Shown here: one piece after another, positions 3,701 through 25,434 of the stretch
Layout: each line of letters begins with the position of its first letter
Position numbering within the stretch: the stretch's first letter is position 1
Source: Geobacter sulfurreducens PCA
GTDB lineage: Bacteria > Desulfobacterota > Desulfuromonadia > Geobacterales > Geobacteraceae
Reading direction: 5' to 3'
Assembly (NCBI RefSeq): GCF_000007985.2
Contig: NC_002939.5
Span: 1,530,001 to 1,562,000 of the forward strand
DNA length: 32,000 nt
Program-made: the position numbers and the translations under genes
Notes under the pieces: model-generated
Told to the model about the DNA's origin: nothing
Databases searched by the model: none
The model's input: the letters and a program-made list of their open reading frames with translations, nothing else

Positions 3701-4653
3701 GTGATCAGTTCCTGCTCCACAGCGTCCCTGATCAGGTAGCCGGCCGCCTCGCCCACGTAGACGTTGAGGCGGGTGATGCCCCAGGCGTGGTCATGGTAAA
3801 ACAGCATGCGGGAGCTCTGCTGGTTGGTCCAGTAGTAGGTCTGGGCGCCGGGACCCGGGTCGGGCATGTCCGGTACGTTTTCCACGCTGACCCCCGTGGG
3901 GTAGTCGGTCATCTCGCCGGCGGGGGTGATCCACTGGTGAGGGGTGCCGTCACTGATCCAGGGGGTGCGGCCGCCGTGCAGGTGCAGTTCGGCCCGGTTC
4001 TGGGTGAAGGTGCCCGACTTGAGGGCCGTTGCCTGCTTCGTGACCGGATCGTAGTCGATCTGGAAGGGACCCGAGCCCATGACCGTCTGGTCGACGGGGA
4101 TGAAAAGGTTGCCGCCGGCGCCGGTGGGGAGCTTGTTGATGAACTTTACCCGTACGGGCCGGTCCTTCTGGGCAACGATAATGGGGCCCAGGTGACGGGG
4201 GCCGGGTGCCGGAGCCACGGTGTTGTTGGCTGTCGTACAGGGGGTGGCCAGGTTCAGCGACGGATCGGTACACGAGGTCGTGTCAGTGCCGTTGTTCACC
4301 TGGACGTAGCCCCGCAGGGTGGTCGGCGGCAGGTCGGAATGCATCTGCTCCGAGTATTGCCGCAGTTCGATTTCGTAATAATCGGAGCCGGGGTAGGTGG
4401 TGATGTCGGGTACGGCCACGGACAGAAACTGCCCTAGGTTGTTGGCGTTGCCGCTGCCGAGTCCCGGCAGGGTGTCGACGAATTTCCGCATGGGCGGGCT
4501 GTTCGCCCAGTTGGGGGTGGTCAGGTAGTCCGGCGTATCGCCGGGACCGATGGGGGTCTTGTCCGGCTTGAGGAACGCCAGCGCGGTGCCGGTACCGGAC
4601 CCGAGAGTGAGAATCGCTATGGCCGTGGCCAATAACATGCGTGCGGAAGTCAT
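742..4653 (-). CDS. ompB: Large secreted multicopper oxidase with a fibronectin type III-like domain and a C-terminal beta-rich extension (OmpB-like)
   Basis: Four copper-ligand motifs are present: LHLHGG, FYHDHAWG, HPVHFHLFD and WHCHILSHEENDMM (HCHxxxHxxxxM). There is an N-terminal signal peptide (LLATAIAILTLGSGTGTALA). An FN3-like segment (LNWTDS...YRYRVVAYNALGDS) follows the oxidase core. The SD AAAGGAGA lies upstream; ATG at 4653 is preferred over the TTG at 4659 used by the ORF track. The gene symbol comes from recollection of Geobacter sulfurreducens OmpB and is not verified. Confidence 0.9.
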   Translation of the reverse strand: MTSARMLLATAIAILTLGSGTGTALAFLKPDKTPIGPGDTPDYLTTPNWANSPPMRKFVDTLPGLGSGNANNLGQFLSVAVPDITTYPGSDYYEIELRQYSEQMHSDLPPTTLRGYVQVNNGTDTTSCTDPSLNLATPCTTANNTVAPAPGPRHLGPIIVAQKDRPVRVKFINKLPTGAGGNLFIPVDQTVMGSGPFQIDYDPVTKQATALKSGTFTQNRAELHLHGGRTPWISDGTPHQWITPAGEMTDYPTGVSVENVPDMPDPGPGAQTYYWTNQQSSRMLFYHDHAWGITRLNVYVGEAAGYLIRDAVEQELITAGTIPSAELPLVIEDKTFVDPATIVATDPTWAWGSQPWTGTGPMTPVKGDLWWPHVYMPAQNPFDITGIAPMGRWAYGPYFWPATNNPFQPIPNPYYSAACDPAGDPATTPGLLGGPYGQFCQPPEIPSTPNPSWGAEAFMDTPLVNGTAYPVVDVDPKPYRLRVLNANHDRFVNLQLYKADPTVDPNATPGSDAKCLALGGCATETEVKMLPALDYSTDPTWPATWPADGRPGGIPDWTTRGPDWVMIGTEGGFLPKPVVIPSHPVTWNNDVTTFNAGNVNGGSLILGPAERADVIVDFSQYAGQTLILYNDAPAPWPAIDPHYDYYTGAPDNRAMGGADTTLAGFGPNTRTIMKIRVAAGAGAPFNLAALQAAFTSGSNSGGQPSVFQRSQDPIIVGQGNMNPAGDPAVFSAFLFPETYDAYNKAYDRVFPTSWPNWGVSRINDKVLNFIGSDGSTTYQYNPADTTPLPWDPTKTTKGGMPMKFKAIQDEQGETFDDYGRMRAALGLELITPGAGRVNFIVQTYSDPATEVLQEDGIQIWKITHNGVDTHPVHFHLFDVQVLNRVGWDGFIRLPDPTELGWKDTVRISPLEDTIVAMKPVKPKMPFGVPNSFRPLNPATPLGDTTELSMVDPTTGQAWATPNINRFMNFDWEYVWHCHILSHEENDMMRPMQFIPVTNLPDAPTLNTAIVTVNSVVLNWTDSTPPSAPTTLGNPKNEIGFRVERCAGSSCTDFAPIGTALANATSYTDLAVNSTTTYRYRVVAYNALGDSPVSNVLSADTAVISRPIITVSPLTANFGNVTVGFTSSPTNITVTNTGQLPLDVTAFTPSGGNAAMFTIQNGSCGTLPVTIAPAANCTFSVTFAPTTAGIVTANLQITSNDAASPVPNISLSGTGISPTTNPVRINTTYYPSLAAAFTAAASGNTIQAFGVLFVEPAVNLNTTGTVTFRGGYDALFGTSTGMTTLQGVFTITNGALVVNNLTIQ

Positions 4654-4744
4654 GATCAAATGTCTCCTTTGTGCTGGCTATAACCCGTCGGAACCGGGTG
4701 TTGCTGGCTTCAGGCTACTCATTAGTGCGGCCGGCCCACGGTTG

Positions 4745-5635: not shown

Positions 5636-7339
5636 TCACGGAATGACCCATTCGCTGCGCCGTTCGAGCTTGGGCGATTCTCCTTTGCCGAGCTGCACGA
5701 TATAGCACCCCTTGGATGCATAGCGCTGGCCCGGACCGAAGCTGACCCGCTCGTAGAGGGGGTAGTACATGTCGGTCATCATGCCGATGCTGTCCAGCAG
5801 GAAGTCCCGGTAGTATTCCGCCCGCATTTCCATCAGTGCCTTGCCCAGGACCTCGCCGGTGATGAACGACTCCCGGATGATCTTCTGGTCAAAGGACTGG
5901 ATGTCTTTGCCGGGCAGAACTTTTTTCACGGCAATGTCGAAACGGACGTCTTCCTGGGGCAGCCGGTAGGGGTAGGTCAGGTAGAGGCGGTCACGCAGCG
6001 GCTCGGGAATGCTCCAGAGCGCTTTGCCCAGATAGGTGCCGGAGGCCAGGAGGACCGTCGGTTGTTCTTCCTTGCCGGCTGCGGCTCCGGTCAGGGCGGG
6101 CAGGGCCGAATCGTCGTCCCAGACCAGCAATGCCGCTGGCCGGCGGGTGTCGAGGATCTCCCTGATCAGCTTGTCCGTGAGGCGTTCCCCCTTGGTCAGG
6201 CGGATGTCGAGGGGGGCGGCGTGCCCACGCTGCTGCCAGATGGTGCGGAATCCATCGGCCAGGGCCTCGCCCTTGCGGCTATCCCTGATCACCTGAACCA
6301 CGGGGCGGTTGCCGAAGAGGCCCGCCATGCCGTTGAGGTACCGGGCGGCGGCTTCCCCTTCCTGCCTGACGCCGCGCGAAAAATAGAGTGTGTACCAGTC
6401 GGTGTCGGAGATGACCGGGTAATCGACCACGGGGAAAAGGTTGGGGATGCGGTTCTCCTCGCAGAACCGGTGCACCGGTTCCCACTCTCCCTCGGAGATT
6501 CCGCCAAGCAGGGCGAAGACCGGTTCGTTGCGGTAGTATTGGTCAAGCTGGGCCCGCCAGGTTTCGGGCGGACCTTTCAGGGTCCAGCGGGACAGGGTGA
6601 AGCTCATACTGTGGAGGTCGCCGAGCATGTTGTACGCCATGCGCGCCACCCGGGAATTCTTCTTGGCCGCAAGGGTGAGACTGTTTTTCCGGTCTACGCT
6701 GAACTGGATGGGGGTCAGCATGGATTCTACCGCAAGAGGGTTGGTTCCCTCCACGATCACCGTGGCGAACTTGATCTCAGATGTGCCGACGCCCGGTGAC
6801 GGTTTGTCGGAGAGCGCCTTCAGGTAGGCGATGAGGATTGCCATGTCCCGGTCGCCGAGTTCGTAGCGGGGCATCACGTAGAGTACCGAGCGGCCGGTGG
6901 GGTCGATCCCCGTGGCGATCAGGCTTGCCAGCGTTTCGTCGGTGTAGGCCGGCCTGACCGGCAGGTTCTTGGCGTAGTTGGAGACGGAGGGGATGAATTC
7001 CGAACCGGGAATGAACGGCTTGCGCTCCTGGTAGAGCACCCGGCCGTTGGTGGGGGGGGTGACCACCTCTCCTTCGAAGGAGCCGAGGCCGCTGTGCAGG
7101 TGGCAGCTTACGCAGGTGAATGCCGTGCCGTCCACCGGCACGTCTCCGCTCACGAACGCCTTCATGGGGGCACCCGAGGGGAGAACCCCCTCCCGGTACA
7201 TCCGTTCGCCCTGGCGCATCTCTTCGGGAGACAGCGCGGCGGTCGGCGCTGCGGCGCGGCCTGTCGCGGCGGAGCACAGCAGCATGAGCAGCATGGCAAC
7301 AGCGGAAAGAGCAAGACGTTTACCGGTCACGCAGATCAT
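5636..7339 (-). CDS. Periplasmic fusion protein: monoheme c-type cytochrome domain plus type-1 periplasmic binding protein (LivK/Peripla_BP_6-like) domain
   Basis: There is a signal peptide (LALSAVAMLLMLLCSAATGRAAA) and a single CXXCH motif (FTCVSCHLH) in the N-terminal roughly 100 aa. The remaining roughly 450 aa resemble branched-chain amino-acid/amide-type solute-binding proteins by eye. The ATGA overlap with the upstream SCO1 gene spans 7336-7339. Confidence 0.75.
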   Translation of the reverse strand: MICVTGKRLALSAVAMLLMLLCSAATGRAAAPTAALSPEEMRQGERMYREGVLPSGAPMKAFVSGDVPVDGTAFTCVSCHLHSGLGSFEGEVVTPPTNGRVLYQERKPFIPGSEFIPSVSNYAKNLPVRPAYTDETLASLIATGIDPTGRSVLYVMPRYELGDRDMAILIAYLKALSDKPSPGVGTSEIKFATVIVEGTNPLAVESMLTPIQFSVDRKNSLTLAAKKNSRVARMAYNMLGDLHSMSFTLSRWTLKGPPETWRAQLDQYYRNEPVFALLGGISEGEWEPVHRFCEENRIPNLFPVVDYPVISDTDWYTLYFSRGVRQEGEAAARYLNGMAGLFGNRPVVQVIRDSRKGEALADGFRTIWQQRGHAAPLDIRLTKGERLTDKLIREILDTRRPAALLVWDDDSALPALTGAAAGKEEQPTVLLASGTYLGKALWSIPEPLRDRLYLTYPYRLPQEDVRFDIAVKKVLPGKDIQSFDQKIIRESFITGEVLGKALMEMRAEYYRDFLLDSIGMMTDMYYPLYERVSFGPGQRYASKGCYIVQLGKGESPKLERRSEWVIP

Positions 7340-7917
7340 TTCAACCCCGCTTTGGTAAGTTCATTCATCAATTCTACGTTGCTGATGAGGCCATAGATCC
7401 TTGTCCATTTGCCGTCGACCGGCGAACGGATGAAGGTCAGGGGCTTGTGGTCCATTTTGTTCCGAAAGTAGGAATTGAAGGCGTTCATGACCCGGTCGAT
7501 GTCCTTGCGTGAGCCCGACAGAAAATCCCACCCCGGCTTGGCGCGGTAGCGCGCGAGGTAGTCGCGCATGACCTGGGGGGTGTCGTTTTCGGGGTCGATG
7601 GAGACGGACACCAGGTGGATTTTCTTCAAGTCAGGGCCCAGCTTGGTCTGGAGATTGGTGTAGGTGGCGGACAGGACCGGGCAGATGGTGGTGCAGGTGC
7701 CGAAGATGAAGTCAACCACCACGGGCTGGTTTGATTCGACGAGCTCCTTGAACCGGACCTTTTTCCCGTCCTGGTTGATGAGGGTCACGTCGGGCATGCT
7801 GTAGCTCTCTACGGAGCGCTGGTATGAACGGGATGCTGCGGTGGCATGACTTGCAAGGGCAAGGCAGGCGGCAATGGCCAGGAAGGAACGAAGGATCGGT
7901 CTTATGAGGGTATGCAT
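7336..7917 (-). CDS. SCO1/SenC-family thioredoxin-fold copper chaperone
   Basis: It carries the CxxxCP motif (FGTCTTICP), a conserved distal His (MDHKP) and a signal peptide (ILRSFLAIAACLALASHATAA) after the internal ATG at 7917. The ORF-track start at 8058 would add 47 non-signal residues. The start position is uncertain. Confidence 0.8.
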   Translation of the reverse strand: MHTLIRPILRSFLAIAACLALASHATAASRSYQRSVESYSMPDVTLINQDGKKVRFKELVESNQPVVVDFIFGTCTTICPVLSATYTNLQTKLGPDLKKIHLVSVSIDPENDTPQVMRDYLARYRAKPGWDFLSGSRKDIDRVMNAFNSYFRNKMDHKPLTFIRSPVDGKWTRIYGLISNVELMNELTKAGLK

Positions 7918-8068
7918 GCGGATGTCATGACCTCCGGTCGAATTTGTCAAAGGGATCACTTGCTGGTTGCGATGAACGCACGATTGGGTATTAGCATAGC
8001 CGACAGCCGGCGGTTTGTCCAAAGCGCCCAACAAATTTTTGTTGGTAAATTGTTTCACTAGCCTTGTG

Positions 8069-14947: not shown

Positions 14948-15691
14948 ATGGAAGAACGATTGCAGAAGCTGCTGTCCCAGGCGGGGGTCGCGTCCCGGCG
15001 CGAGGCGGAACGGTTCATCACCGAGGGACGGGTGGCGGTGAACGGCACGGTCGTTACCGAGCTGGGGAGCAAGGCCGACCCGGAGCGGGACCGGATAACC
15101 GTGGACGGGCAGCCCGTCCGTCCGGCGGAGAAGAAGGTGTATCTCATCCTCAACAAGCCCGTGGGCTATATGACCACCCTCAGGGATCCGGAGGGGAGAC
15201 CCATTGTCACCGATCTCCTCAAGGGGCTCGATGTCCGCGTCTTTCCCGTGGGGCGGCTCGACTACAACACCGAGGGGCTTCTGCTGCTCACCAATGACGG
15301 TGCCTGGGCCAACCGGCTCGCCCATCCCCGGCATGAGGTGGACAAGGAATACCTGGTCCGGGTGCGGGGGGCTGTGGCCAAGGAGCAGATCCGGCGGCTG
15401 GCTACCGGTGTGGAACTGGACGACGGGCCGACGGCGCCGGCAAAGGTGGAGGTGTCCAGCCAGAGCGATAACAACACCTGGCTTTCCATCGTGATTCACG
15501 AGGGGCGCTACCGCCAGGTGCGCCGCATGTGCGAAGCCGTGAGCCTGTCGGTGGTCCGCCTGCGCCGGGTGAGATACGGCGCGGTCTCGCTCGGCGACCT
15601 GAAACCGGGGGAGTACCGGCCCCTCAGCCCGACGGAGGTTGCAGCCCTGGCCGGCCGCGAAAAACGAGAACAGCGCCGTCGGAAAGCCTGA
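14948..15691 (+). CDS. rluB: RsuA/RluB-family 23S rRNA pseudouridine synthase (S4 domain plus catalytic domain)
   Basis: It has the S4 motif (RLQKLLSQAGVASRREAERFITEGRVAVNG), the catalytic VGRLDYNTEGLLLLTND motif and a basic C-terminal tail. ATG 14948 is preceded by GGAGGGG. The ORF-track TTG at 14936 overlaps that SD. Confidence 0.88.
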   Translation: MEERLQKLLSQAGVASRREAERFITEGRVAVNGTVVTELGSKADPERDRITVDGQPVRPAEKKVYLILNKPVGYMTTLRDPEGRPIVTDLLKGLDVRVFPVGRLDYNTEGLLLLTNDGAWANRLAHPRHEVDKEYLVRVRGAVAKEQIRRLATGVELDDGPTAPAKVEVSSQSDNNTWLSIVIHEGRYRQVRRMCEAVSLSVVRLRRVRYGAVSLGDLKPGEYRPLSPTEVAALAGREKREQRRRKA

Positions 15692-15732
15692 TCGCTCAAG
15701 GCTGCTTTTGTTGGATCATTTTGTGTCCGGAT

Positions 15733-16695
15733 TTAGTGCATCGTTTTGAGGGGAAATGCGCATGGCCTCATGCGCAGCAGAAATTTTCGGCCGTCATAGA
15801 TGGTTTCCAGAAGAAGGCCCCTGTCGATGAGCCGTTCCACCTCTGACCAGTCGGTACCTGCCTTGACCAGAAGCTCACGCGCGGCATCTTCCCGCAAGGG
15901 ATGAACGCCCGTGATGCCGAGCAGGTCGGCGGTCACGTCTCCACTGCCGGTAAAGTCGTTCCCTTCGTAGCCGGTGAGGTATTCCACTCGCTCAACGCTT
16001 CCCGAAATAATCTGCACGGCCCGATTGAGGGCCTCGGCTGTCGGCGGCGTCGCCCACCGCTCCGTCGGCGGCCTGATAGGAACTGCGACATAGGAGACGT
16101 CCGGTTTCAGCTCCCCCAGAAACGCCGCAAGCATCTCCAGTTCGGTTTCGGAGTCATTGATGCCGCTCACCAGCATGGTCTCAGTGGCGAGTGTCCCCGT
16201 GAACTCTTCGGCAAACAGGGCCATTCCGCTCAAGAGGTCGGCGAGCCGCAGGGTGGCGGCCGGCCTGTTGATGCGGTGCCATGCGTCCCCGTCCACTGCA
16301 TCCACCTTGAGGGAAACCCAATCCGCCAGGGCAAGTTCGGCCCTTACGTCGGAACGCCAGATGAGCGAGCTGTTGGTGATGACGGCGATTTTTATGCCGA
16401 GGGGTCTGAGCAGCTCGATTTCTCTCCCGAGGTTCAGGTCAAGGGTCGGTTCACCGTCGGCCACAAACGTAAGGTAATCGATCCGTTCGCCCCGTTCGAT
16501 GAGTCTGCGGACCGCCCGCTCAACCTCGACGGCAATGGTTTCCGGGCGGCAGAAGCGGCGCCGGGCGCTCTGAATGGAGCAGGTCCGGCCCAACTGGCAG
16601 TAAACGCAAGAATAGGAACATGCCTTGGCAGGTATGGTGTCGAGCCCGAGGCTGCGCCCCAGGCGTCTGGATGGTACCGGTCCGAAGATGAACAT
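15733..16695 (-). CDS. Radical SAM protein of unknown specificity
   Basis: It has the CxxxCxxC cluster motif (CSYSCVYCQ) close to the N-terminus. The N-terminus MFIFGPVPSRRLGRSLG is typical of a widespread radical SAM subfamily. ATG 16695 has AAGGAAGA upstream. The alternative ATG 16737 lacks an SD. Confidence 0.8.
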   Translation of the reverse strand: MFIFGPVPSRRLGRSLGLDTIPAKACSYSCVYCQLGRTCSIQSARRRFCRPETIAVEVERAVRRLIERGERIDYLTFVADGEPTLDLNLGREIELLRPLGIKIAVITNSSLIWRSDVRAELALADWVSLKVDAVDGDAWHRINRPAATLRLADLLSGMALFAEEFTGTLATETMLVSGINDSETELEMLAAFLGELKPDVSYVAVPIRPPTERWATPPTAEALNRAVQIISGSVERVEYLTGYEGNDFTGSGDVTADLLGITGVHPLREDAARELLVKAGTDWSEVERLIDRGLLLETIYDGRKFLLRMRPCAFPLKTMH

Positions 16696-16819
16696 GATGC
16701 GTCCGTCTTCCTTGAGCACTACGGTTCGTCCGGGCATGCACCCGGCAAGATCATGAATTCATCCCAAAGTATACCCTGTTCGGAAATATATTCCAGAGAC
16801 GACCGTGACTCTTGGCAGC

Positions 16820-17071
16820 TCAGGGAAGGGTCAGGTGGCGAAGCGTTGCCCGGATTTCCTCTATGCCCACGGCCGTGCCGAAGCATCCCGCCCCGGCAAA
16901 GGGATCGTACTCCCTGATTTGCGAAACAAGGGTCTCCACCAGATGGGTACGGTCACCATACCGCTCCGGGTCGTCGGCGATGCCCAGTACATCGGCCAGC
17001 AGCCATTCCGGGAATTCACCCTCCGCATTCTGCCGGAGGGCAACCTCTCTGAGTTCTTCGAAGACGTCCAT
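16820..17071 (-). CDS. Hypothetical acidic 83-aa protein, last gene of the Fe-S/selenoprotein operon
   Basis: ATG at 17071 is preceded by the SD GAAAGGA at 6 nt spacing and lies 11 nt after the selenoprotein stop. The composition looks coding (MDVFEELREVALRQNAEGEFPEWLL...). I recognise no family. Confidence 0.55.
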   Translation of the reverse strand: MDVFEELREVALRQNAEGEFPEWLLADVLGIADDPERYGDRTHLVETLVSQIREYDPFAGAGCFGTAVGIEEIRATLRHLTLP

Positions 17072-17082
17072 ACGCAGTCCTT

Positions 17083-17328
17083 TCAGCCTGAGGTGCCATG
17101 ACGCCGGGCGCGGATAGCCGGGATAATGTCCAGCGGTTCCGGCATCCGGCCCCGTTCGAGGCGGGAGAAAATTATCTCTCCGTCCAGGTACACGGCAAAT
17201 TCGCTCCGCGGTGCCTGTTTGTCGAGTTCCACCGATACATTCTCCTCCGTCTGCTCGATCAAGCGGGCCAGACCGGCCGCAATGGGATACTGGCTTCAGG
17301 TGGGGCAGAACAGGATCCTGACGTTCAT
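17083..17328 (-). CDS. SelW/SelT/SelH (Rdx)-family selenoprotein, 81 aa, with in-frame UGA (Sec) at codon 11 (coordinates 17296-17298)
   Basis: My minus-strand translation is MNVRILFCPT-U-SQYPIAAGLARLIEQTEENVSVELDKQAPRSEFAVYLDGEIIFSRLERGRMPEPLDIIPAIRARRHGTSG. It has a CxxU redox motif at the position of CxxC/CxxU in Rdx proteins, plus the family-typical F.V.(L/V)DGE.I(F/W)SR...GR.PE block. The ATG overlaps the mrp stop (ATGA). A SECIS-like hairpin lies downstream of the UGA. The gene is not visible in the ORF track. Confidence 0.8.
17263..17280 (-). promoter_or_regulatory. Candidate bacterial SECIS element
   Basis: The mRNA sequence GCGGCC-GGUCU-GGC(C)CGC forms a 6-bp GC stem with one bulged C and a GGUCU apical loop. 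It starts 16 nt after the UGA, placing the loop about 22-26 nt downstream. Loop sequence and distance are comparable to the E. coli fdhF SECIS as I recall it. Confidence 0.6.
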
Positions 17329-18212
17329 TGTCCGCCCTCCCGTGCTGCGTTGACGGCGGTATCGCAACGGGCCGCGACGGTCGCCACAATTTCGGCAAAG
17401 GCCTTTGCCGTGGGGGAATCGGCCCGGTGTTCCACCAGGGGCTCCCCTTCGTCGCCGGCTCTGACCATGGCCGGGTCCAGCGGAATCCTGCCCAGGAAGG
17501 GCACGCTCATTTCATCGGCCATGAGCTTGCCGCCGCCGCTCTTGAAGATGTCGACCCCTTCGCCGCAGTGGGGGCAGACAAAGCCGCTCATGTTCTCGAC
17601 TACGCCGATGACCGGCAGCTTCATCTGACGGCAGAAGGTGACCGACTTGCGCACGTCGGTGAGCGCAACGTCCTGGGGAGTGGTGACGATGACGGCGCCC
17701 TCCGCCCCTTCCAGAAGCTGGATCACCGAGAGAGGCTCATCACCGGTCCCTGGCGGGCAGTCGACGATCAGGTAGTCCAGATTACCCCACTCCACGGCGG
17801 CCAGAAACTGCTTGATGACGCCGTGTTTGGCCGGTCCCCGCCAGACTACCGCCTCGGCCTGGTCGCGCAGCAGCAGCCCTACCGACATGACTTTGAGGGT
17901 GTCGCTGTAGGGAACCGGTTCGATCCGGGCGGCAGTTGCCGGAAGCCGGCCCTCAATGCCGAGAAGGGTCGGGATGCTTGGCCCGTGCAGATCGACATCC
18001 AGCAATCCCGTTTTCTTGCCGCTGAGCGAGAGGGCCACGGCCAAGTTGACCGCCACCGAGCTCTTGCCCACGCCCCCCTTGCCCGACAGCACCACGATCT
18101 TGTGCTTGATGTTGAAAAGGGCTTCCTGCAGTTCGATCTGCTCTTTGAGCCGGTGCAGCTCTTCCACCTGCTCCCTGTTGCATGATTTTTGCGCTACCTT
18201 TTCACCCTGCAT
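17325..18212 (-). CDS. mrp: Mrp/ApbC/NBP35-family P-loop ATPase (Fe-S cluster carrier)
   Basis: It has the deviant Walker A motif GKGGVGKSS, the CPHCGE (CxxC) cluster-bridging motif, and DYLIVDCPPGTGDE. ATG 18212 has GAGGTG 8 nt upstream. The ORF-track start is the GTG at 18221. Confidence 0.9.
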   Translation of the reverse strand: MQGEKVAQKSCNREQVEELHRLKEQIELQEALFNIKHKIVVLSGKGGVGKSSVAVNLAVALSLSGKKTGLLDVDLHGPSIPTLLGIEGRLPATAARIEPVPYSDTLKVMSVGLLLRDQAEAVVWRGPAKHGVIKQFLAAVEWGNLDYLIVDCPPGTGDEPLSVIQLLEGAEGAVIVTTPQDVALTDVRKSVTFCRQMKLPVIGVVENMSGFVCPHCGEGVDIFKSGGGKLMADEMSVPFLGRIPLDPAMVRAGDEGEPLVEHRADSPTAKAFAEIVATVAARCDTAVNAAREGGQ

Positions 18213-18278
18213 GCTGTTCACCTCGTATTTCCTGTCGAATTTCGCCGGATATGTTTTGTCGCCATCCCACCACGAGAC

Positions 18279-18674
18279 TCATAAGGGCTTCGTCTCACCC
18301 GCCACTGTTGCACGGTATTGCTCGACCGCCGCGTGGAGCGCCGAAGCCGCCATGTTCGAGCAGTGCATCTTCTCTTCGGGGAGCCCGTCAAGGGCCTGGG
18401 CGATGATCTGATCGGAGAGCCCCATGACCTCGTCGAGCCCCTTGCCCATGACAAGCTCCGTTGCCACTGACGATGTGGCGATGGCCGCACCACATCCCTT
18501 GATGAGAAATTTGATGTCGCGCACGATATCCTCTTCGATCCTGAGGAAGTAGAGCACCGCATCGCCACAGGTGGGGTCGCCTGCCTGTACCACCACGTTG
18601 GCATCCTCCAGTGACCCCACATTGCGCGGGTTGCGCACGTGATCCCATACCTTCGCCGAATAAATCTCAGCCAT
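18279..18674 (-). CDS. IscU/NifU N-terminal-domain-like Fe-S scaffold protein
   Basis: Three conserved Cys sit in typical contexts (GDPTCGD, KGCGAAIATSS, MHCSNMAA). ATG 18674 has the SD AAAGGAA and overlaps the upstream gene by 8 nt. Confidence 0.85.
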   Translation of the reverse strand: MAEIYSAKVWDHVRNPRNVGSLEDANVVVQAGDPTCGDAVLYFLRIEEDIVRDIKFLIKGCGAAIATSSVATELVMGKGLDEVMGLSDQIIAQALDGLPEEKMHCSNMAASALHAAVEQYRATVAGETKPL

Positions 18675-19023
18675 GTTCGGTTCCTTTCCGTTCCCCGGTC
18701 TCGGCGTTGTCATCCGATACGCCGTGTTCGGGCACATCCCCGGTCACGGCCAGGGCTTTCTGCTCCACAAGGGCTTCGATCACCTTTTTCCTTCCCTCGG
18801 CCAGTAGCCGCTGGACCGTTCCCCGGGAAACCCCCATCAGCGTTCCCGCTTCCTCCTGGTTCAGCCCCAGCTTGTCGCAGAGAAACAGCGCCTCAAGCTC
18901 ATCGTGATCCAGGATGATGATCTCCATCTCCTTCAGCGGAGTGCCCGCGGGCTTGAAGACGTGTCCCAGCTTCTCCCGGAGGGGGCAGATGCAGTTGCGT
19001 TGTTTTTTCTTGCGTGGCGACAT
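18667..19023 (-). CDS. DUF134/UPF0251-family putative DNA-binding protein (sigma70 region-4-like HTH)
   Basis: The N-terminus is MSPRKKKQRNCICP...FKPAG. The protein also contains DELEALFLCD and an HTH segment (LNQEEAGTLMGVSRGTVQRLLAEGRKKV). The SD AAAGGAA lies upstream. Confidence 0.8.
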   Translation of the reverse strand: MSPRKKKQRNCICPLREKLGHVFKPAGTPLKEMEIIILDHDELEALFLCDKLGLNQEEAGTLMGVSRGTVQRLLAEGRKKVIEALVEQKALAVTGDVPEHGVSDDNAETGERKGTEHG

Positions 19024-19043
19024 GGGTTCCTTTCATCGGGTGG

Positions 19044-20039
19044 TCAGTTCCGCCTCGGTGCGGGACAGGACGGCGCTGGTGCCTCACCGAAGAGCGTGCC
19101 GGTAAATTTTACGTACCAGGCGGCTGACTGCACCTGGATGATGTAGGCCAGGGCAATGACCAGCGCCGCGTCGGAACCGGCCTTGCCGAAGGCGTTCATG
19201 GCCACGGCCAGGGCAATGGAGAGGTTGCGCATCACCGTGCCGTAGGCCAGGGCGATAGCATCGCCCCGGGGAAGGAAAAGCCTGCCCACAACGGTGCTGA
19301 GGCTATAGTTGATGCCGTAGAGAATGGCCAGGGGCAGCAGGATTGCCAGCAGATCCTGGGGGCGGGCCGCGATGGCCTGTGCCTTGAGGGCTATGGCGAT
19401 GAAAACGATGCCCAGGACGCCCAGGGTGGAGAGGCAGGGGAAGCGGGGCGCCCACTGTTCCTGGAATCCTTTCTGGCCGTGCTTCGCTATCAGATAGCGC
19501 TGGGTCGCATACCCGACCGCCATGGGCAGGAAAACGATGACGGCGATTTGCTTCATGATGCCGGTCATATCCACCTCCACATGGGCGCCCATGAGGGCTT
19601 GCACGTAGAAGGGGGTTGCGATCGAGCCCAGGATGAGGCCCACGACGGTCATCTTGACTGCCGCTTCGAGGTTCCCCCTGGCAAAGCCGGTCCAGGAGAT
19701 GGTCATGCCGCTGGTGGGGACCAGGGCCGCAAGCAGCAGGCCCAGGGCCATGTAGGGGCGGTCAGCAAAGAAAAGCCTTCCCAGCCCGAAGGCGACAAAG
19801 GGCACCACCGCGAAGTTGATGAACTGGGTGAACAGCTGGGCCTTGCCGTCACCTCCCTCCAGTACCTTCTTCAGCTTAAGGGTCACCATCATGGGGTAGA
19901 CCATGAGAAAGGTGAAGGGGATGATCAGCTCCTTGAGAAAGCCGGTCTCAGTCACGAGACCGAAGACGAAGCCCGCGGCCATCATGGCGGGAATGGTCAG
20001 CACCAGGTTCTTGTTGAGTCTGCTCAGCAGTTGCCACAT
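19044..20039 (-). CDS. ACR3/BASS-superfamily permease (arsenite-efflux-like / bile acid:Na+ symporter fold)
   Basis: The 331-aa protein has about 10 predicted TM helices. The LMVYPMMVTLKLKKV and NFAVVPFVAFGLG blocks resemble ACR3 family motifs. Substrate assignment is uncertain. Confidence 0.7.
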   Translation of the reverse strand: MWQLLSRLNKNLVLTIPAMMAAGFVFGLVTETGFLKELIIPFTFLMVYPMMVTLKLKKVLEGGDGKAQLFTQFINFAVVPFVAFGLGRLFFADRPYMALGLLLAALVPTSGMTISWTGFARGNLEAAVKMTVVGLILGSIATPFYVQALMGAHVEVDMTGIMKQIAVIVFLPMAVGYATQRYLIAKHGQKGFQEQWAPRFPCLSTLGVLGIVFIAIALKAQAIAARPQDLLAILLPLAILYGINYSLSTVVGRLFLPRGDAIALAYGTVMRNLSIALAVAMNAFGKAGSDAALVIALAYIIQVQSAAWYVKFTGTLFGEAPAPSCPAPRRN

Positions 20040-20061
20040 AGCCTTGGCCCTCTGCGCGCGC

Positions 20062-20472
20062 TCAGCGCGCCTCCTCGATCATGGCCACGATGGCATCGAA
20101 GCTCTCATCCAGGGATGAGGCGAACTCGGTGTCGTCCACCAGGGCCTCGATCATGGGCCTGCGGTAGCGGAGCATCCGGACCTCAGTCCTGCCGTCGCGG
20201 GTGAACGTGGTGATGAATTTCGGCATGAGAGCGGCCCGTTCCGGGTTTTTCTGAAGGCTTGCGGCCGCCTTTTTCGGCTTGCAGACCTGGATCATATGGA
20301 GATCGAACCCTTCGCCAACCATTACGCCATGGGCACCGAAGGTATGCGCCATTTCCATCTTTTCCTCATTGTGAATGACGAACCCTCGCCGGCTGCCGGC
20401 CTTGGCCAGCGCCGCGACGAACTCGCCGAGGGGTTTGTCCGTTGTAGCCTGATACAGTTCCGCCCAGTTCAT
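20062..20472 (-). CDS. DUF302 domain protein
   Basis: The internal ATG at 20472 has the SD AGGAGAG at 7 nt. The sequence pattern (GFVIHNEE...HMIQVCKPKKAA...LMPKFITTF) is typical of DUF302. The upstream 58 aa of the ORF-track call overlap the preceding gene. Confidence 0.75.
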   Translation of the reverse strand: MNWAELYQATTDKPLGEFVAALAKAGSRRGFVIHNEEKMEMAHTFGAHGVMVGEGFDLHMIQVCKPKKAAASLQKNPERAALMPKFITTFTRDGRTEVRMLRYRRPMIEALVDDTEFASSLDESFDAIVAMIEEAR

Positions 20473-20488
20473 GATCGATCTCTCCTGT

Positions 20489-20866
20489 TCAGTGAGCGCA
20501 GCCGTGGCCATGGCCGTGACCCCCGCAGGTGGGTGGCACGATTTCCTGGAAGGCGCCGCTTCTGAACAAGGCAACGTTTTCCCCCACCGTGGGCGCCTGT
20601 GAGCTGAACACTTTGACCTGCGCGCGGTTGAGCATGATGAGTGCACCGGCGCCGATCCCTCCGACCACGACCGCGTCGAGCGGCGCTCCTGCCAAGGCCT
20701 TCAGCGGGTTGCACGATCCGTGGCTGTGGTGTTTGTCGGTGTTGTCAATGGAGACCGTTGCCCCGGTCTCAGTGTCCACTACGATAAAGCGCTGTGCGGA
20801 TCCAAAGTGCTCATACACCTTGCTGTCGAGTCCATCGTCCGATGTCACGGGAAAGCAGAGTTTCAT
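20489..20866 (-). CDS. NifX/NifB-C-terminal-like (dinitrogenase FeMo-cofactor-binding fold) protein with a Cys/His-rich C-terminal tail
   Basis: MKLCFPVTSDDGLDSKVYEHFGSAQRFIVVD...VVVGGIGAGA is typical of the Nitro_FeMo-Co domain family. The tail is PPTCGGHGHGHGCAH. ATG 20866 has the SD AAGGAGG at 6 nt. Confidence 0.8.
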   Translation of the reverse strand: MKLCFPVTSDDGLDSKVYEHFGSAQRFIVVDTETGATVSIDNTDKHHSHGSCNPLKALAGAPLDAVVVGGIGAGALIMLNRAQVKVFSSQAPTVGENVALFRSGAFQEIVPPTCGGHGHGHGCAH

Positions 20867-20883
20867 ACGTGCCTCCTTTTGTT

Positions 20884-20926
20884 GTGTGCATATGCACACT
20901 ATTGCATTCGATTTCTTGAATGTCAA
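20884..20926 (-). promoter_or_regulatory. Putative sigma70 promoter plus palindromic operator for the NifX-like...SelW operon
   Basis: On the minus strand: TTGACA (20921-20926), a 17-nt spacer, AATAGT (20898-20903), then the perfect 16-bp palindrome GTGTGCATATGCACAC (20884-20899). The palindrome overlaps the -10 and predicted TSS and ends 17 nt before the ATG. Confidence 0.5.
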
Positions 20927-21052
20927 TAGCTTTGTGTACAAATTAATTTTGAGTAGAAAACGGCGTCAGTGGAACCAGTAAACAGGTTGCGATGGGGCAG
21001 GACTGGTCGGCAGGGTTGAAAGGGAGGAAAAGGCAAAAAGTTGGCACTTGCA

Positions 21053-21081
21053 TGGGCATCCTCATATTTATCACGTATAAT
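21053..21081 (+). promoter_or_regulatory. Putative sigma70 promoter for the hybrid histidine kinase gene
   Basis: TGGGCA, a 17-nt spacer, then a perfect TATAAT (21076-21081), 43 nt upstream of ATG 21124. This is a pattern match only. Confidence 0.35.
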
Positions 21082-21123
21082 TCGATGAAAAGGTAGTCTT
21101 GCCGGCTGAGTCCGAGAAGAACA

Positions 21124-23781
21124 ATGACGCAAGATATCATTCTGAGACAGGCCCATATCGAGGCGTTTGAAGACCTTCCGGTGCAGGTCGCCGTGTGCGA
21201 TACCGAGTACGGGATCGTCTGGGCGAACAAGGCGTACCGGGAGGCCGTGGAGCTTTCCTTACGGGCACTCGTGGGCAGGAAGTGCTATTCCGTACGGGGG
21301 ATGGGCGTTCCGTGCCGCAACTGCCCGGCGGCTATCGCCGTGGAGGCCGGCACGCCTTCTGACGCGGAGTTGATCCAGCCCCGTCCGGAACACTGCCCGG
21401 GACCGCCGGGGACGTGGCTGACAACGGCTTCGCCGCTACGGGATGACAACGGTGCCGTTGTCGGCGTAGTGGTGCTGACGTTTAATGGAGTGCAGACCGG
21501 GGCTTCAGACGAGCGGCTGCGTCTGTTCACGGAGCATGCGCCTGCCGCCCTTGCCATGTTCGACCGGGAGATGCGGTATCTTGCCGTGAGCCGGCGCTGG
21601 CGCGAAGACTACGGTCTTGGAGACGGCGATATTCTCGGCATGTCTCACTATGATATCTTCCCGGAAATCGGAGAAGAGTGGAAGTCCGTGCATCGCCGCG
21701 GCCTCGCGGGGGAAGTTATCCGCGTCGAAGAGGATTGCTTCGTGCGGGCTGACGGCCGAACTCAGTGGCTGCGATGGGAAGTGCGTCCCTGGTACGAGGG
21801 GGAAGGCCGAGTGGGGGGCGTCGTCATTTTTACCGAAGACATCACCAGAGCCAAGGTGTCCGAACGCGAATTGCGTCTGGCGCGGTTCTGCATGGACGAA
21901 TCGGCCATTGCCATCTTTTCGGTGGCCGAGAATGGCCGCATTATCGATGCGAACCGTCGAGCCTGCGAGGGGCTCGGCTATTCACGGGACGAGCTCTGCT
22001 CCCTGACGGTCTTCGATATTGACCCGACGTTCAGCGATGATAGTTGGCTCAGGCACCGGGCGAACATCCGCGAGCGCGGCTCCGGTACCATAGAAACCCT
22101 CCACCGGCGCAAGGACGGTAGCGTTTTCCCGGTCGAGATCACTGTCACCTATCTCGATTTCGAAGGAGAACGGTTCTCTTTCTCCTTTGCCCATGACATC
22201 ACCGAGCGTAAGCAGGCCGAGGCTGCCGTGCGGGAGAGCGAGGAAAAATTCCGGAACATTTTCCAGGATCATGCCGCGGCAAAGCTGATCATTGACCCAG
22301 AAAGCGGCGCCATCGTCGATGCCAACAATGCTGCAGCGCTCTTTTACGGCTGGTCTGTGGCCGAACTGTGCGGCATGAAGATTTCCAAAATCAACACCCT
22401 TCCTTTCTCGCAGGTGAAAGAAGAGATGGACAAAGCCCGGAATTCCGGGAATACGCGGTTCGAATTCCAGCATCGAAAGGCTGACGGCAGCATTGTCGAT
22501 GTCGAGGTCTACAGCAGCAAAGTCCGCATCGGAGGCAAGGAGTACCTGCATTCGATCATTCACGACATCACCGAAAAACGCAAGCTGGGAGACCAGCTCC
22601 GGCAGGCCCAGAAGATGGAGTCAATCGGTACCTTCGCGGGAGGTGTCGCTCACGATTTCAACAACATCCTTACGGTTATCACGGGGTGCGGTTCAATGCT
22701 GCGACTGAAGCTTGAGCAGCACCCCCAGTTCCTGCCCCTGCTCGATCAGATCCTCAAATCATCTGAAAAAGCGGCAACCTTGACGCGAAGCCTCCTGGCA
22801 TTCAGCCGCAAACAGGTCATCGTACCGAAACAGCATGATTTGGCGGAAATTGTTGCGGATATGGAGAAATTCCTCCAACGGATCATCGGAGAAGATATCG
22901 ATTTGAAATTCTCCCTGCCGAGCTACGGATTGCCGGTTTCCGTGGACCAGGGCCAGATTGAGCAGGTCATCGTCAATCTGGCGGCCAACGCTCGCGATGC
23001 CATGACGGAAGGTGGGATGCTGGCCATAGGCGCGGACATGGTGCGGCTCGACACGATTTCAGCGTCCCTCCACGGCTGCCGTCCGGGAGACTATGCCCTG
23101 CTTACCGTTACCGACAGTGGGATCGGCATGGATGACGCAACAAAGGAGAAAATTTTCGATCCCTTCTTCACAACCAAGCCGGTCGGCAAGGGGACGGGCC
23201 TCGGTCTGGCCATGGTTTACGGCATCATCAAGCAGCACGATGGGGTGATTACGGTTTATACCGAGGTGGGAAGGGGTACCACATTCCGGATTTATCTTCC
23301 CCTGGCAGCCGGTGCGCGGGAGCATGCCGATGCGACGCCGGTTTTCCCGGGGGGAAACGAAACCATTATGCTCGTGGAGGATGATGAATCCGTGCGAACC
23401 ACCACGGCGGATATTCTGACAATGTTCGGCTACCGTGTTGTGACCGCGGGGGACGGGGCAGAGGCCATCGAACGGTATCGTGCGACCGGAGAGGATATAG
23501 CCTTGGTGATTCTTGACGTCATCATGCCGCGGATGAATGGCCGCCAGGTCCATGACGAGCTCCTAAAGATCAACCCGGCTGTGAAGGTCGTCTATACGAG
23601 CGGCTACACTGCCGATCTGATCGAGAACAAAGGAGTTCTCGACGCCGGTATCCAATTCGTTCCCAAACCGCTCCTCCCCCAGGACATTCTCACGGCAATC
23701 CGTCGGGTGCTGGATGGCCGTGAGGTGCTGCCAAGCCTGCATCATGAGCATGAGCCGGCCGAGGTAGAACCTCAGTCGTAG
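21124..23781 (+). CDS. Multi-PAS hybrid sensor histidine kinase with a C-terminal receiver domain
   Basis: There are at least four PAS/PAC-like repeats. It has the H-box ([14 protein letters not shown]), N/G boxes ([30 protein letters not shown]) and a receiver ([11 protein letters not shown]...[10 protein letters not shown]...KPL). Confidence 0.92.
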
Positions 23782-23818
23782 TGCCCCGCGACCTGAGTTC
23801 TACGGAAACACTCTTCGA

Positions 23819-23846
23819 TTGAACAAACAAAAAAACGAATTATAGT
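23819..23846 (+). promoter_or_regulatory. Putative sigma70 promoter upstream of the single-domain response regulator
   Basis: TTGAAC (23819-23824), a 16-nt A-rich spacer, then TATAGT (23841-23846). This implies a 5' leader of about 155 nt. Confidence 0.35.
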
Positions 23847-24007
23847 TAAGGTTGTGTCCCGTGCGGCCGGCACTAACCGTACTTCCGGTGCCGGTCCCGT
23901 CTGTGCCGATGGTGCTATGCCCGCTCCATGGAATTTCTGAGCGGCACAATCCACTCGGGGCGTGAGCGGCCTGATGGACTCTCATCTTATGTTAGCGGAG
24001 TGAACTG

Positions 24008-24403
24008 ATGCAAAACGACCAGTGTCGCGGCAGGGTCCTGGTGATGGACGATGACGAAGATATCAGGATGATCGCGGGCTTTTACCTTGAACGGTGTGGG
24101 TTTTCCGCCGACTTTGCCGAAGACGGCAAACAGGCCGTGGAACTGTACGGCACCGCCCTTTCGCAGGGCAGGCGTTATGCGGCGGTGATCATGGATTTAT
24201 CCGTCCCCGGCCGAATGGGGGGGCTTGAAGCCATTGCCCGGATCACGGAAGTCGATCCGAATCTGATAGCCTTCATATCGAGCGGCAGCACGGAATTCCT
24301 CGATCAGGTGGAGATGGAACGTCTCAGCATTCGGGGAATACTGCCGAAACCGTTCAGGGAAAATGACATCTCACAGCTGATCGAGGCCATCGGGACACCA
24401 TGA
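24008..24403 (+). CDS. Single-domain response regulator (receiver only)
   Basis: It has VLVMDDDEDIR, a phospho-acceptor context (VIMDLSVPGRMGG) and KPF. The SD GGAG lies 9 nt upstream. Confidence 0.88.
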   Translation: MQNDQCRGRVLVMDDDEDIRMIAGFYLERCGFSADFAEDGKQAVELYGTALSQGRRYAAVIMDLSVPGRMGGLEAIARITEVDPNLIAFISSGSTEFLDQVEMERLSIRGILPKPFRENDISQLIEAIGTP

Positions 24404-24446
24404 ATTACTGCGCAGAATCACGCCAATCATACGAAAGAAGGTCTCT

Positions 24447-25229
24447 ATGCCGGTCACGACTCACCTGATTTATTTCTCCCCCACCAGCACCACGAAAATG
24501 ATCGTCGAACAGATTGCCGAGGGCATTGGCGACACGAGTGTTGCACACCATGACCTAACCCGGTTGAAAGGTGGGCTCGATCTGCGGCTTGATGACGGTC
24601 TTGCCGTTATCGGTGTCCCGGTTTACGCGGGGCGGGTGCCGGAAATCTGTCTGGAGCGACTGGGTGGTTTGTCGGCGTCCGGCGTTCCCGCCGTGCTGGT
24701 TGTCCTGTACGGCAACCGCGCGTTCGAGGATGCGCTGATCGAATTGCGGGATGTCGCTGTTGCCAAAGGATTTACGGCGATCGCTGCCGGCGCGTTTATC
24801 GGTGAACATTCGTATTCGACGACTACCCAACCGATTGCCGCCCATCGCCCGGACCCGGCCGACCTGGCAAAGGCGCGGGAGTTCGGATGGCTCATCGCCC
24901 GCCGACTGCGTGCCGGCATCGGTCTGGCAATGCCGGTGATTCCCGGCGACGTGCCCTACAGGGAGCGGCCGCCGCTGGGCGGTGTCGCGCCGGAAACCGA
25001 TCCCGGGCTCTGCACCCTGTGCGGTACCTGCGCCGCCCTGTGTCCTACCTTTGTCATCAAGGTGGATGACAGGGTCCTGACGAGCGCGGAAGGGTGTCTG
25101 AAGTGCTGTGCTTGCACAAAAGGCTGTCCCGCAGGGGCCAGGACGCTGCATCACCCCACGGTTGAAACACGGTGCGAGATGCTGGTCAACCAGTGCAGCG
25201 AGCGGAAAGAGCCGGCATTGTTCCTGTAG
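24447..25229 (+). CDS. Flavodoxin-like domain fused to a 2x[4Fe-4S] ferredoxin domain (EFR1-like)
   Basis: The N-terminus is flavodoxin-like (LIYFSPTSTTKMIV...VIGVPVYAGRVPE). There are two Cys clusters, CTLCGTCAALCP and CLKCCACTKGCP. Confidence 0.8.
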   Translation: MPVTTHLIYFSPTSTTKMIVEQIAEGIGDTSVAHHDLTRLKGGLDLRLDDGLAVIGVPVYAGRVPEICLERLGGLSASGVPAVLVVLYGNRAFEDALIELRDVAVAKGFTAIAAGAFIGEHSYSTTTQPIAAHRPDPADLAKAREFGWLIARRLRAGIGLAMPVIPGDVPYRERPPLGGVAPETDPGLCTLCGTCAALCPTFVIKVDDRVLTSAEGCLKCCACTKGCPAGARTLHHPTVETRCEMLVNQCSERKEPALFL

Positions 25230-25347: not shown

Positions 25348-25434
25348 TGGTGCCGAAGACTGGACTCGAACCAGCACACGGTTGCCCGCACAAGATCCTG
25401 AATCTTGCGTGTCTACCAATTCCACCACTTCGGC
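25348..25434 (-). tRNA. tRNA-Leu (anticodon CAG), 87 nt with a long variable arm and encoded CCA
   Basis: Hand-folded cloverleaf: acceptor GCCGAAG/CUUCGGC, anticodon stem CAAGA/UCUUG with loop UUCAGGA, a 16-nt variable arm, T-arm GCUGG-UUCGAGU-CCAGU, discriminator A, and CCA. Confidence 0.93.

Follow-up and report, generated by a model that had tools for sequence, protein, structure and literature searches.

In the IscR-controlled isc operon, an autoregulated repressor that senses iron-sulfur (Fe-S) clusters is encoded together with the scaffold genes, and the operons that answer sulfide or reactive-sulfur stress through CstR or BigR contain TauE/SafE, rhodanese and CoA-persulfide reductase. 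In Desulfovibrio vulgaris and D. alaskensis, the Orange Protein (ORP)/MrpORP system (DVU2103-2109), the products of which form a complex, includes MrpORP, a protein that binds [4Fe-4S] clusters and passes them to aconitase and the Orp proteins (PMC6345978), and the ORP operons run on sigma54 with the enhancer-binding protein DVU2106 (PMC4641369). Here we describe an apparent eight-gene operon of Geobacter sulfurreducens PCA that resembles these systems in different parts. It occupies positions 16820-20926, on the minus strand, of a 32,000-nucleotide (nt) stretch of the chromosome (NC_002939.5, positions 1,530,001 to 1,562,000), which is referred to below as the window and whose numbering is used throughout. 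A first-pass annotation, made from the letters of this DNA alone, had named no characterized relative of the operon; the Desulfovibrio ORP/MrpORP system is a close one.

The trafficking of Fe-S and heterometal clusters in strict anaerobes is poorly understood, and ORP, DUF134, DUF302, DUF5320 and the permease subfamily considered here are all widespread. We think it rather probable that the locus is one sigma70-driven operon, repressed via a palindromic operator by its own DUF134 protein, and that its products constitute a mosaic, ORP-related and derepressible apparatus for handling Fe-S clusters or other metalloclusters, to which an accessory permease has been added. Three rival explanations are weighed below and appear less likely.

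A conserved operator and its candidate regulator

A check of open reading frames (ORFs) combined with Pfam and NCBIfam searches confirmed all eight ORFs, co-directional on the minus strand, at the positions claimed by the first-pass annotation and with the families that it had named. In order, they encode a NifX-like protein, a DUF302 protein, a permease of the SBF/ACR3 superfamily, a DUF134 helix-turn-helix (HTH) protein, an IscU-type protein, an Mrp protein, a SelW-like protein with a CxxU motif and a protein of 83 amino acids (aa). The successive junctions measure 16, 22, 20, -8, 66, -4 (ATGA) and 11 nt, the 66-nt gap between the IscU-type gene and Mrp being reduced to 57 nt if an alternative GTG start of Mrp is used. 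The tight packing described at the outset is likewise borne out: gaps range from -8 to 66 nt, start and stop codons overlap at two junctions (DUF134/IscU by 8 nt and Mrp/SelW by ATGA), and a Shine-Dalgarno-like sequence precedes each of the eight genes.

Upstream of the NifX-like gene lies a sigma70-type promoter (20898..20926, minus strand) consisting of TTGACA (20926-20921), a 17-nt spacer and a TG-extended AATAGT (20903-20898). With matches at 10 of 12 positions it is the best promoter-like site within 15400-21400, a region that holds six such sites against 1.4 expected. A search of 20867-21123 for a sigma54 promoter recovered no match to TGGCAC-N5-TTGC with up to 2 mismatches; PAS-sigma54 enhancer-binding proteins do adjoin some of the related loci. 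Terminator-like matches across the region are no more frequent than in shuffled sequence. Given this single strong sigma70-like promoter, the shuffled-level frequency of terminators and the two overlapping junctions, the eight genes appear to be transcribed as a single unit.

The end of the -10 box and the predicted transcription start are overlapped by a perfect 16-bp palindrome, GTGTGCATATGCACAC (20884..20899, unstranded), which sits 18 nt before the ATG of the NifX-like gene. It has a single match in the window and is the sole inverted repeat of the intergenic region. This operator, with a size of 14-16 bp and the core TGTGCATATGCACA, is conserved well beyond G. sulfurreducens. Allowing at most one mismatch, the 14-bp core is found at 17 sites in 1.35 Mb of DNA from 80 other genomes, compared with an estimated ~0.2-0.4 by chance; 16 of the 17 precede the start codon of a NifX-like or DUF302 gene by 15-72 nt, and the last stands before an OsmC gene at the head of a DUF302-permease operon. 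The architecture of these sites is constant, with a -35 box, a spacing of about 20-22 nt, a palindrome beginning at the last base of the -10 box, a Shine-Dalgarno sequence and the ATG; in 21 sites of other genomes the distance between a TTGAC or TTGAT -35 box and the palindrome is fixed.

A scan of metagenomes with the pattern TTGAY-N21-23-TGTGYATATRCACA returned 119 stretches. In 53 of them a DUF134 and/or a NifX-like gene is located within 2 kb (46 with DUF134, 45 with NifX-like, 37 with both), and the remaining hits look like chance matches. The first gene after the operator in the metagenomic loci belongs to DUF134 in 27 cases, to the NifX-like family in 17 and to DUF302 in 5. Two of the operator-headed metagenome loci (L140 and L097) encode DUF134, an MBL-fold protein, two Orp3/4-like proteins that combine MinD with ferredoxin, and full MrpORP proteins whose scores of 494 and 501 bits exceed the cut-off of 450.

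Two further features were observed near operators in other loci. The main operator is accompanied by a second copy (TGTGCTTATGCACA or TGTGCATACGCACA), ~50 nt farther upstream and flanking the -35 box, at L035:5292, L057:11626 and L072:10085, an arrangement that suggests cooperative binding. In L162 and L187, 65-aa Cys/His-rich ORFs (containing GHGSCSGHGHQGCCGSH) with a Shine-Dalgarno sequence intervene between the operator and the DUF134 gene; they are similar to the NifX-like protein's C-terminal tail.

The candidate for the protein that reads this site is encoded within the operon itself. The DUF134/UPF0251 protein (18667..19023, minus strand; 118 aa; PF02001, 59.9 bits vs a cut-off of 27) shows Pfam matches to sigma70 region 4-like HTH domains and, by sequence against the PDB, generic sigma region 4 matches only. 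Among transcription-factor families, DUF134 alone recurs at the operator sites. Three DUF134 genes of a Desulfobacterales type (40-47% identity) are not preceded by the TGTGC palindrome; instead, a TGGTCAnnTGACCA-type palindrome is found at the same two promoter positions, i.e., twice per promoter, upstream of the -35 box and over the -10/+1 region (L010:4780-4905; L051:11020-11150; L076:11640-11766). The palindromes of the two types are TGTGC-ATAT-GCACA (Geobacter type) and TGGTC-N4-GACCA (Desulfobacterales type), and the recognition helices read SRGTVQRLL in the former and SRQT[FVY]GRIL in the latter. The Desulfobacterales-type DUF134 genes are followed by a DUF5320 gene and an MBL-fold gene. 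Because factor and operator co-vary, the site covers the -10 box and the transcription start, and the DUF134 gene is the commonest target, we infer that DUF134 is most likely an autoregulated repressor that binds the operator. Two cysteines, C11 and C49, are invariant in DUF134 proteins of the Geobacter type. Searches of the literature for an account of DUF134/UPF0251, of the operator sequence or of the GSU locus tags retrieved nothing relevant.

A conserved operator paired with a candidate regulator provides a testable handle in the genetically tractable G. sulfurreducens, and through the operator the regulon can be delimited, which would lead on to the inducing signal.

A mosaic of exchangeable modules

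We surveyed the neighborhoods of 80 arbitrary permease-bearing genomic loci, searching each with nine proteins of the window. The permease is adjoined by DUF302 in 23 of the 80 loci and has a NifX-like gene nearby in 11, DUF134 in 13 and an IscU gene (at least 55% identity) in 7; the loci with the latter three linkages are almost all from Desulfuromonadales/Geobacterales, with the addition of one Nitrospirota genome. None of the 80 links Mrp, SelW or the radical SAM gene located next to our operon to the permease, and one links a GSU3529-like gene, i.e., a relative of the 83-aa protein. The order of genes within the modules is shuffled between genomes, and linkage of Mrp-SelW to the operon is seen only in G. 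sulfurreducens and G. anodireducens.

Differences are already marked among close relatives. In CP010430, a 4.57-Mb genome labeled "G. sulfurreducens", the operator is followed by NifX, DUF302, the permease, DUF134 and IscU, and then by an aldehyde dehydrogenase, a CGGC protein, a methyltransferase and a sigma54 enhancer-binding protein. In G. pelophilus the operon runs to 13 genes, among them a GSU3529-like gene and genes for a methyltransferase, rhodanese, thioredoxin, DsbD_TM and OsmC. At the same chromosomal site in G. anodireducens, a DUF5320 gene (L209:6839-7114) is placed between IscU and Mrp, at the position of the 66-nt gap; Mrp-SelW is kept, and the locus is without GSU3529, the radical SAM gene and the 885-aa PAS kinase. 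These differences indicate that the tail of the operon is evolving quickly.

The eight-gene unit is thus a species-specific mosaic and is not conserved as a whole. Its modules are NifX-like plus DUF134; DUF302 plus permease; IscU, with or without GSU3529 or DUF5320; and Mrp plus SelW. NifX-like plus DUF134 (with or without IscU and a GSU3529-like gene) recurs in Desulfuromonadales and Nitrospirota, and in other organisms this pair stands at the head of canonical ORP clusters with MrpORP; the DUF302-permease module extends from Geobacter to haloarchaea. The exchangeability of the modules shows which genes are best studied together (NifX-like with DUF134, DUF302 with the permease, Mrp with SelW) and that the radical SAM gene can be left aside.

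This bears directly on the proposal of the first-pass annotation that the eight genes are a dedicated, self-contained pathway in which one inorganic species is moved across the membrane, a specific metallocluster is assembled or repaired, and the radical SAM enzyme is a client. The tight coupling behind a single promoter agrees with such a pathway; the lack of a desulfurase in the window makes an external source of sulfur or selenium conceivable; and the DUF302-permease pair does co-occur with NifX-like, DUF134 and IscU in several Desulfuromonadales and one Nitrospirota genome. We nevertheless regard it as unlikely, given that gene content differs even between sister species, that Mrp, SelW and the radical SAM gene are unlinked to the permease in the 80 other genomes, and that the permease is mostly found in unrelated contexts. 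Synteny outside the strain thus failed for the eight-gene unit, whose composition is conserved neither in the 80 genomes nor in G. anodireducens, and held for its sub-modules. What did survive of the original description is the mixing of cluster genes with the DUF302-permease pair, which recurs in other lineages under one operator.

At the opposite extreme, the locus might be an accident, with unrelated small modules having come to lie behind one promoter and sharing no function. Such a view would account for the different operon tails of close relatives and for the shuffled order of the modules. Against it, in distant lineages these families are found recombined again and again under one and the same operator, which is the signature of a regulon with a shared purpose, and the translational coupling at the ATGA and 8-nt overlaps argues for co-expression. 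We consider this the least probable of the explanations discussed here, and the reading of an ORP-related, DUF134-controlled mosaic is the one that we carry forward.

The first gene of the operon encodes the NifX/MTH1175/ORP-like protein (20489..20866, minus strand; 125 aa; PF02579, 64 bits). Its closest solved structures are TM1290, TM1816, MTH1175 and the ORP of D. gigas (2wfb). The subfamily keeps C4, an HxHGxCxP motif and a C-terminal CGGHGHxxGCxH tail, with the Cys and His residues conserved across 16 sequences; together with the cysteines of the Geobacter-type DUF134, these residues are compatible with the binding of a metal or a cluster.

The IscU/NifU-N-type protein (18279..18674, minus strand; 131 aa; PF01592, 135 bits), the start of which forms the 8-nt overlap with the DUF134 stop, appears to be a paralog of the Fe-S scaffolds. 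Its translation contains the motifs GDPTCGD, KGCGAA and HCSNMA, so that the three Cys ligands are present; it falls below the equivalog cut-offs of NCBIfam (NifU_clost, 151.5 vs 187.9). The P-loop Fe-S carrier of the Mrp/NBP35 family (17325..18212, minus strand; 295 aa from the ATG at 18212; PF10609, 338 bits) displays the GKGGVGKS and CPHC motifs and belongs with the MrpORP clade. The best NCBIfam model for it is MrpORP (NF041136), with 398 bits against a cut-off of 450, compared with 235 for ApbC. It covers positions 3-254 of the 365 in the MrpORP profile and stays below the cut-off because the C-terminal NifX-like domain is missing. In keeping with the first-pass annotation, neither a cysteine desulfurase (aminotransferase class V) nor nitrogenase genes were found in the window, whether as called genes or as ORFs.

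The Mrp gene is followed by that of a SelW/Rdx-like selenoprotein (17083..17328, minus strand; 81 aa), whose ATG provides the overlap with the Mrp stop. An in-frame TGA at 17296-17298 gives the motif CPTU, and the 81-aa gene is called in the NCBI annotation too. The protein passes both family cut-offs (PF10262, 55.2 bits vs 22.6; TIGR02174, 38.6 vs 34.2) and shares the CxxU motif with the SelW/SelT/SelH (Rdx) proteins; unlike those, it is translationally coupled to an Fe-S carrier of the Mrp family, a pairing observed in no species other than G. sulfurreducens and G. anodireducens. A candidate bacterial selenocysteine insertion sequence (SECIS), the mini-hairpin GCGGCC-GGUCU-GGCCCGC (17263..17280, minus strand), begins 15 nt after the UGA with a predicted stability of -7.8 kcal/mol. 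The fold of the wider region is no better than that of shuffled sequence (z = 0.75) and has no Rfam match, and the element is only plausible.

The last gene (16820..17071, minus strand; 83 aa) had been taken for an orphan and in fact belongs to the GSU3529 family (NCBIfam NF045727, 103.2 bits vs a cut-off of 44). Genes of this family, with a conserved DP[YF]AGxGCF motif, recur within the module in L060, L131, L204 and L205 (tblastn). The AlphaFold model of the 83-aa protein is a four-helix bundle with a predicted local distance difference test (pLDDT) score of 72; comparing it with the PDB using Foldseek gave nothing at E <= 0.001 and hence no functional clue. Homolog searches started from GSU3529 and from SelW (with U changed to C) yielded just 3 and 2 near-identical clusters, respectively, which were unusable for neighborhood analysis.

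The DUF302-permease pair and its surroundings

The second and third genes encode a cytoplasmic DUF302 protein (20062..20472, minus strand; 136 aa; PF03625, 29 bits), which has no sequence match in the PDB, and its partner, a permease of the SBF/BART superfamily (19044..20039, minus strand; 331 aa; PF01758 SBF, 101.6 bits vs 24.3). The permease is 65-78% identical across Desulfuromonadota, Desulfobacterota, Nitrospirota and Rhodocyclales, and its subfamily is present in at least 568 species. Throughout the subfamily, the crossing-helix motifs PTSGMTISW and GTVMRNLS show no variation, and the closest solved structures are those of ASBT homologs (E ~1e-8). DUF302 also lies directly upstream of a permease with 40% identity on a Halorubrum megaplasmid (L208:4463-6002). 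Among the haloarchaeal plasmid permeases, which are 36-40% identical, a Haloarcula copy (L207:4992-6845) stands beside a TauE/SafE "sulfite exporter".

Public databases label this permease an "arsenic resistance protein", and the first-pass annotation had called it metalloid-type. The resemblance to ACR3 (e.g., that of the Streptomyces pSSFR1 ars operon) holds at the level of the SBF/BART fold and of similar length, and goes no further: identity is only ~26%, and the ACR3 signature residues are absent. Assignment to true ACR3 (TIGR00832) is rejected by a score of 89.4 bits against a cut-off of 282.8. In an alignment with the ACR3 of a real ars operon (L206), the Cys of the RCIAMV motif is replaced by Thr (PTSGMT) and the Glu of IEVPV by Gln (IQVQS), and both replacements are conserved across the permease subfamily. 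In work on CgAcr3-1 and AmAcr3, the Cys and Glu of the RCIAMV/IEVP motifs are reportedly essential in ACR3. The genomic context is not that of ars operons either, with no ArsR, ArsC or ArsA/D in the window and an ArsR-type neighbor only in L004. The BASS bile acid:sodium symporter subfamily (TIGR00841) was rejected likewise, at 44.4 bits against a cut-off of 326.3. Judged by its sequence, the permease constitutes a distinct and highly conserved subfamily, neither ACR3 nor BASS proper, and this corrects the database label for a family spread over hundreds of species.

The neighbors of the pair recur in other genomes and include sigma54 PAS regulators, CoADR/rhodanese-type oxidoreductases, thioredoxin, DsbD_TM, rhodanese and OsmC, as well as TehB-like and other methyltransferases, an ArsR-type regulator, RACo-like activators, YeeE-type "sulphur transport" proteins, TauE/SafE and TerC. 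DUF302 has in addition been described as a conserved extra gene in sox clusters (PMC5037610). These recurrent neighbors and the presence of DUF302 in sox clusters point to thiol-redox stress and the chemistry of sulfur or other chalcogens, and a sulfur or chalcogen species is the probable substrate of the permease. Among 139 putative operon mates of the permease, Pfam family counts brought out no dominant functional partner besides DUF302 and DUF134; large genes that flank related loci (a helicase, aconitase, a TonB receptor and EF-G) were set aside as unrelated neighbors.

Some of the same neighbors lend themselves to another explanation, in which the operon would serve the detoxification of metalloids or chalcogens (arsenite/antimonite or selenite/tellurite), with the permease as an efflux pump and the Fe-S and redox genes repairing the damage. 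The public label speaks for it, as do the ArsR-type gene after the permease in L004, the TehB-like or other SAM methyltransferases after the pair in L057, L204, L203 and L205, the TerC neighbor in L210, the OsmC, thioredoxin and DsbD genes in L205, and the selenoproteins, namely SelW here and a peroxiredoxin with selenocysteine (Sec) in the L094/L124 operon. It is made improbable by the shortfall of the permease against the ACR3 model (89 vs 283) and the loss of the Cys and Glu of that family to Thr and Gln, by the absence of ArsC, ArsA and ArsD from the window, and by the fact that the methyltransferase link is confined to a minority of loci.

Two gene arrangements around the pair were observed in other loci. 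In L124 and the near-identical L094, ~2.0-2.8 kb past the operator, the Sec-peroxiredoxin, with an in-frame TGA at the position of the peroxidatic Cys (FYPGDFTFV-U-ATE), forms part of a DUF302-permease-NifX-like operon. In the Desulfobacterales loci L044, L045, L075, L076 and L082, a RACo-like protein of ~700 aa is encoded co-directionally just upstream of the permease; it is an ASKHA ATPase with 2Fe-2S and 4Fe-4S domains, from the family of the reductive activators of corrinoid proteins.

Downstream of the operon lies the radical SAM gene (15733..16737, minus strand). The 124-nt gap originally reported between it and the operon holds for a start at 16695, and with the start at 16737 called by NCBI the distance to the GSU3529-family gene is 82 nt. 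Since it is unlinked to the permease in the 80 other genomes and missing from the G. anodireducens locus, it is probably a mere neighbor outside the system, and the suggestion that it might be a client or an extension of the operon does not stand. A near-palindrome, TCGGAAATATATTCCAGA, occupies 16780-16797 within the 82-nt gap and may represent a separate regulatory site of the radical SAM gene.

On the other side, a divergent set on the plus strand (21124-25229) encodes a PAS hybrid kinase of 885 aa, a response regulator and a 260-aa ferredoxin-domain protein. The PAS histidine kinase (21124-23781) was considered as a conserved partner and discarded, as it is not kept beside the module and is absent in G. 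anodireducens. Outside the operon, the window encodes an OmpB-like multicopper oxidase, Sco1, CorA, a GGDEF protein, DnaE, AccA, RluB, a PAS kinase, response regulators, TlyA and SbcCD. The multicopper-oxidase-domain protein, of 1304 aa and with Ig-like domains (742-4659, minus strand), is presumably the G. sulfurreducens outer-surface protein OmpB; it is encoded near the SCO1/SenC copper chaperone (7336-8058, minus strand). An Rfam search of the window had a tRNA gene (25351-25434, minus strand) as its sole match and identified no riboswitch or SECIS family.

Weighing the proposal against known systems

If the operon is the derepressible ORP-related mosaic that we propose, a DUF134 dimer seated on the palindrome over the -10 box and the start would repress its own operon, and a change in the signal seen by DUF134, be it a cluster or metal on its two cysteines or a thiol-reactive species, would lead to derepression. 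The IscU-type protein would then build Fe-S clusters, the MrpORP-clade Mrp would carry them, by analogy with the biochemistry of MrpORP, and the NifX-like protein would hold or deliver a cluster or a heterometal-sulfide species. SelW, coupled to Mrp, could supply thiol/selenol redox chemistry, and the permease, with DUF302, might move small anionic species of a sulfur or chalcogen type.

Several observations weigh against this proposal. In L006, L009, L020 and L035 the operator occurs without a DUF134 gene within the DNA examined, so that the factor would have to come from a gene located elsewhere. Invariance of the two cysteines is limited to DUF134 of the Geobacter type and does not extend to the Desulfobacterales type, and sensing based on them would therefore not be a family-wide property. 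The operator is found at ~12 of the 80 permease loci and the DUF302-permease pair at 6 of the 53 operator loci, the pair being mostly without the operator; the functional tie of the pair to cluster handling may accordingly be loose. The neighbors of the pair fit sulfur, selenium/tellurium, arsenic or general redox stress alike. Finally, the ORP system is itself described only as "putatively involved in cell division" (PMC6345978).

A wider generalization can be entertained, which we offer tentatively and rate at somewhat less than an even chance. DUF134/UPF0251 would be an uncharacterized family of autorepressors that read 5-N4-5 palindromes and control the NifX/ORP-type metallocluster genes of anaerobes, including those of ORP/MrpORP; its Geobacter type would sense a cluster, a metal or sulfur via the two cysteines, making it the counterpart of IscR in anaerobes, tied to a DUF302-dependent anion permease. 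Were this true, DUF134 would link cluster handling to a new kind of permease.

The comparison with the systems introduced at the beginning can be made feature by feature. For the CstR/BigR systems the likeness resides in the permease pair, homologs of which are flanked by CoADR-rhodanese-type oxidoreductases, thioredoxin, rhodanese, TauE/SafE and YeeE-type proteins, and in the occurrence of DUF302 in sox clusters. Unlike those systems, the locus yielded no regulator of the CstR/BigR type, no persulfide dioxygenase and no sulfide:quinone oxidoreductase, and its transporter is from another family.

The isc operon under IscR has more of its logic in common with the G. sulfurreducens locus. In both, a small HTH regulator is encoded inside its own operon, beside an IscU-type scaffold and a carrier, and the operator overlaps the promoter; the Geobacter-type DUF134 also has conserved cysteines. 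The HTH of DUF134, however, is sigma70 region 4-like and not of the Rrf2 fold, and its cluster binding is putative, with two conserved Cys per monomer in contrast to the three Cys and one His of IscR. The operon also differs from isc in having no cysteine desulfurase, HscBA or ferredoxin.

The ORP/MrpORP system of D. vulgaris and D. alaskensis (PMC6345978) shares the actual protein families. The differences are of arrangement and control: Mrp and the NifX-like protein are separate here, whereas ORP has the two-domain MrpORP; no Orp3/Orp4 MinD ATPases with a 2x[4Fe-4S] ferredoxin insert are found among the genes and ORFs of the window; a sigma70-type promoter with a palindrome takes the place of sigma54 and the PAS-type DVU2106; and DUF302-permease, IscU, SelW and GSU3529 have been added. 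Common to both are a small protein of the NifX/MTH1175 fold, as seen in the match to 2wfb, a P-loop carrier of the Mrp/NBP35 family for which MrpORP is the best model, and their confinement to anaerobes. Moreover, true MrpORP proteins and clusters with Orp3/4-like genes lie behind the same operator in other organisms. The content of these loci (L140 and L097) implies that the DUF134 operator also heads canonical ORP clusters, and that the G. sulfurreducens operon is an ORP-related variant.

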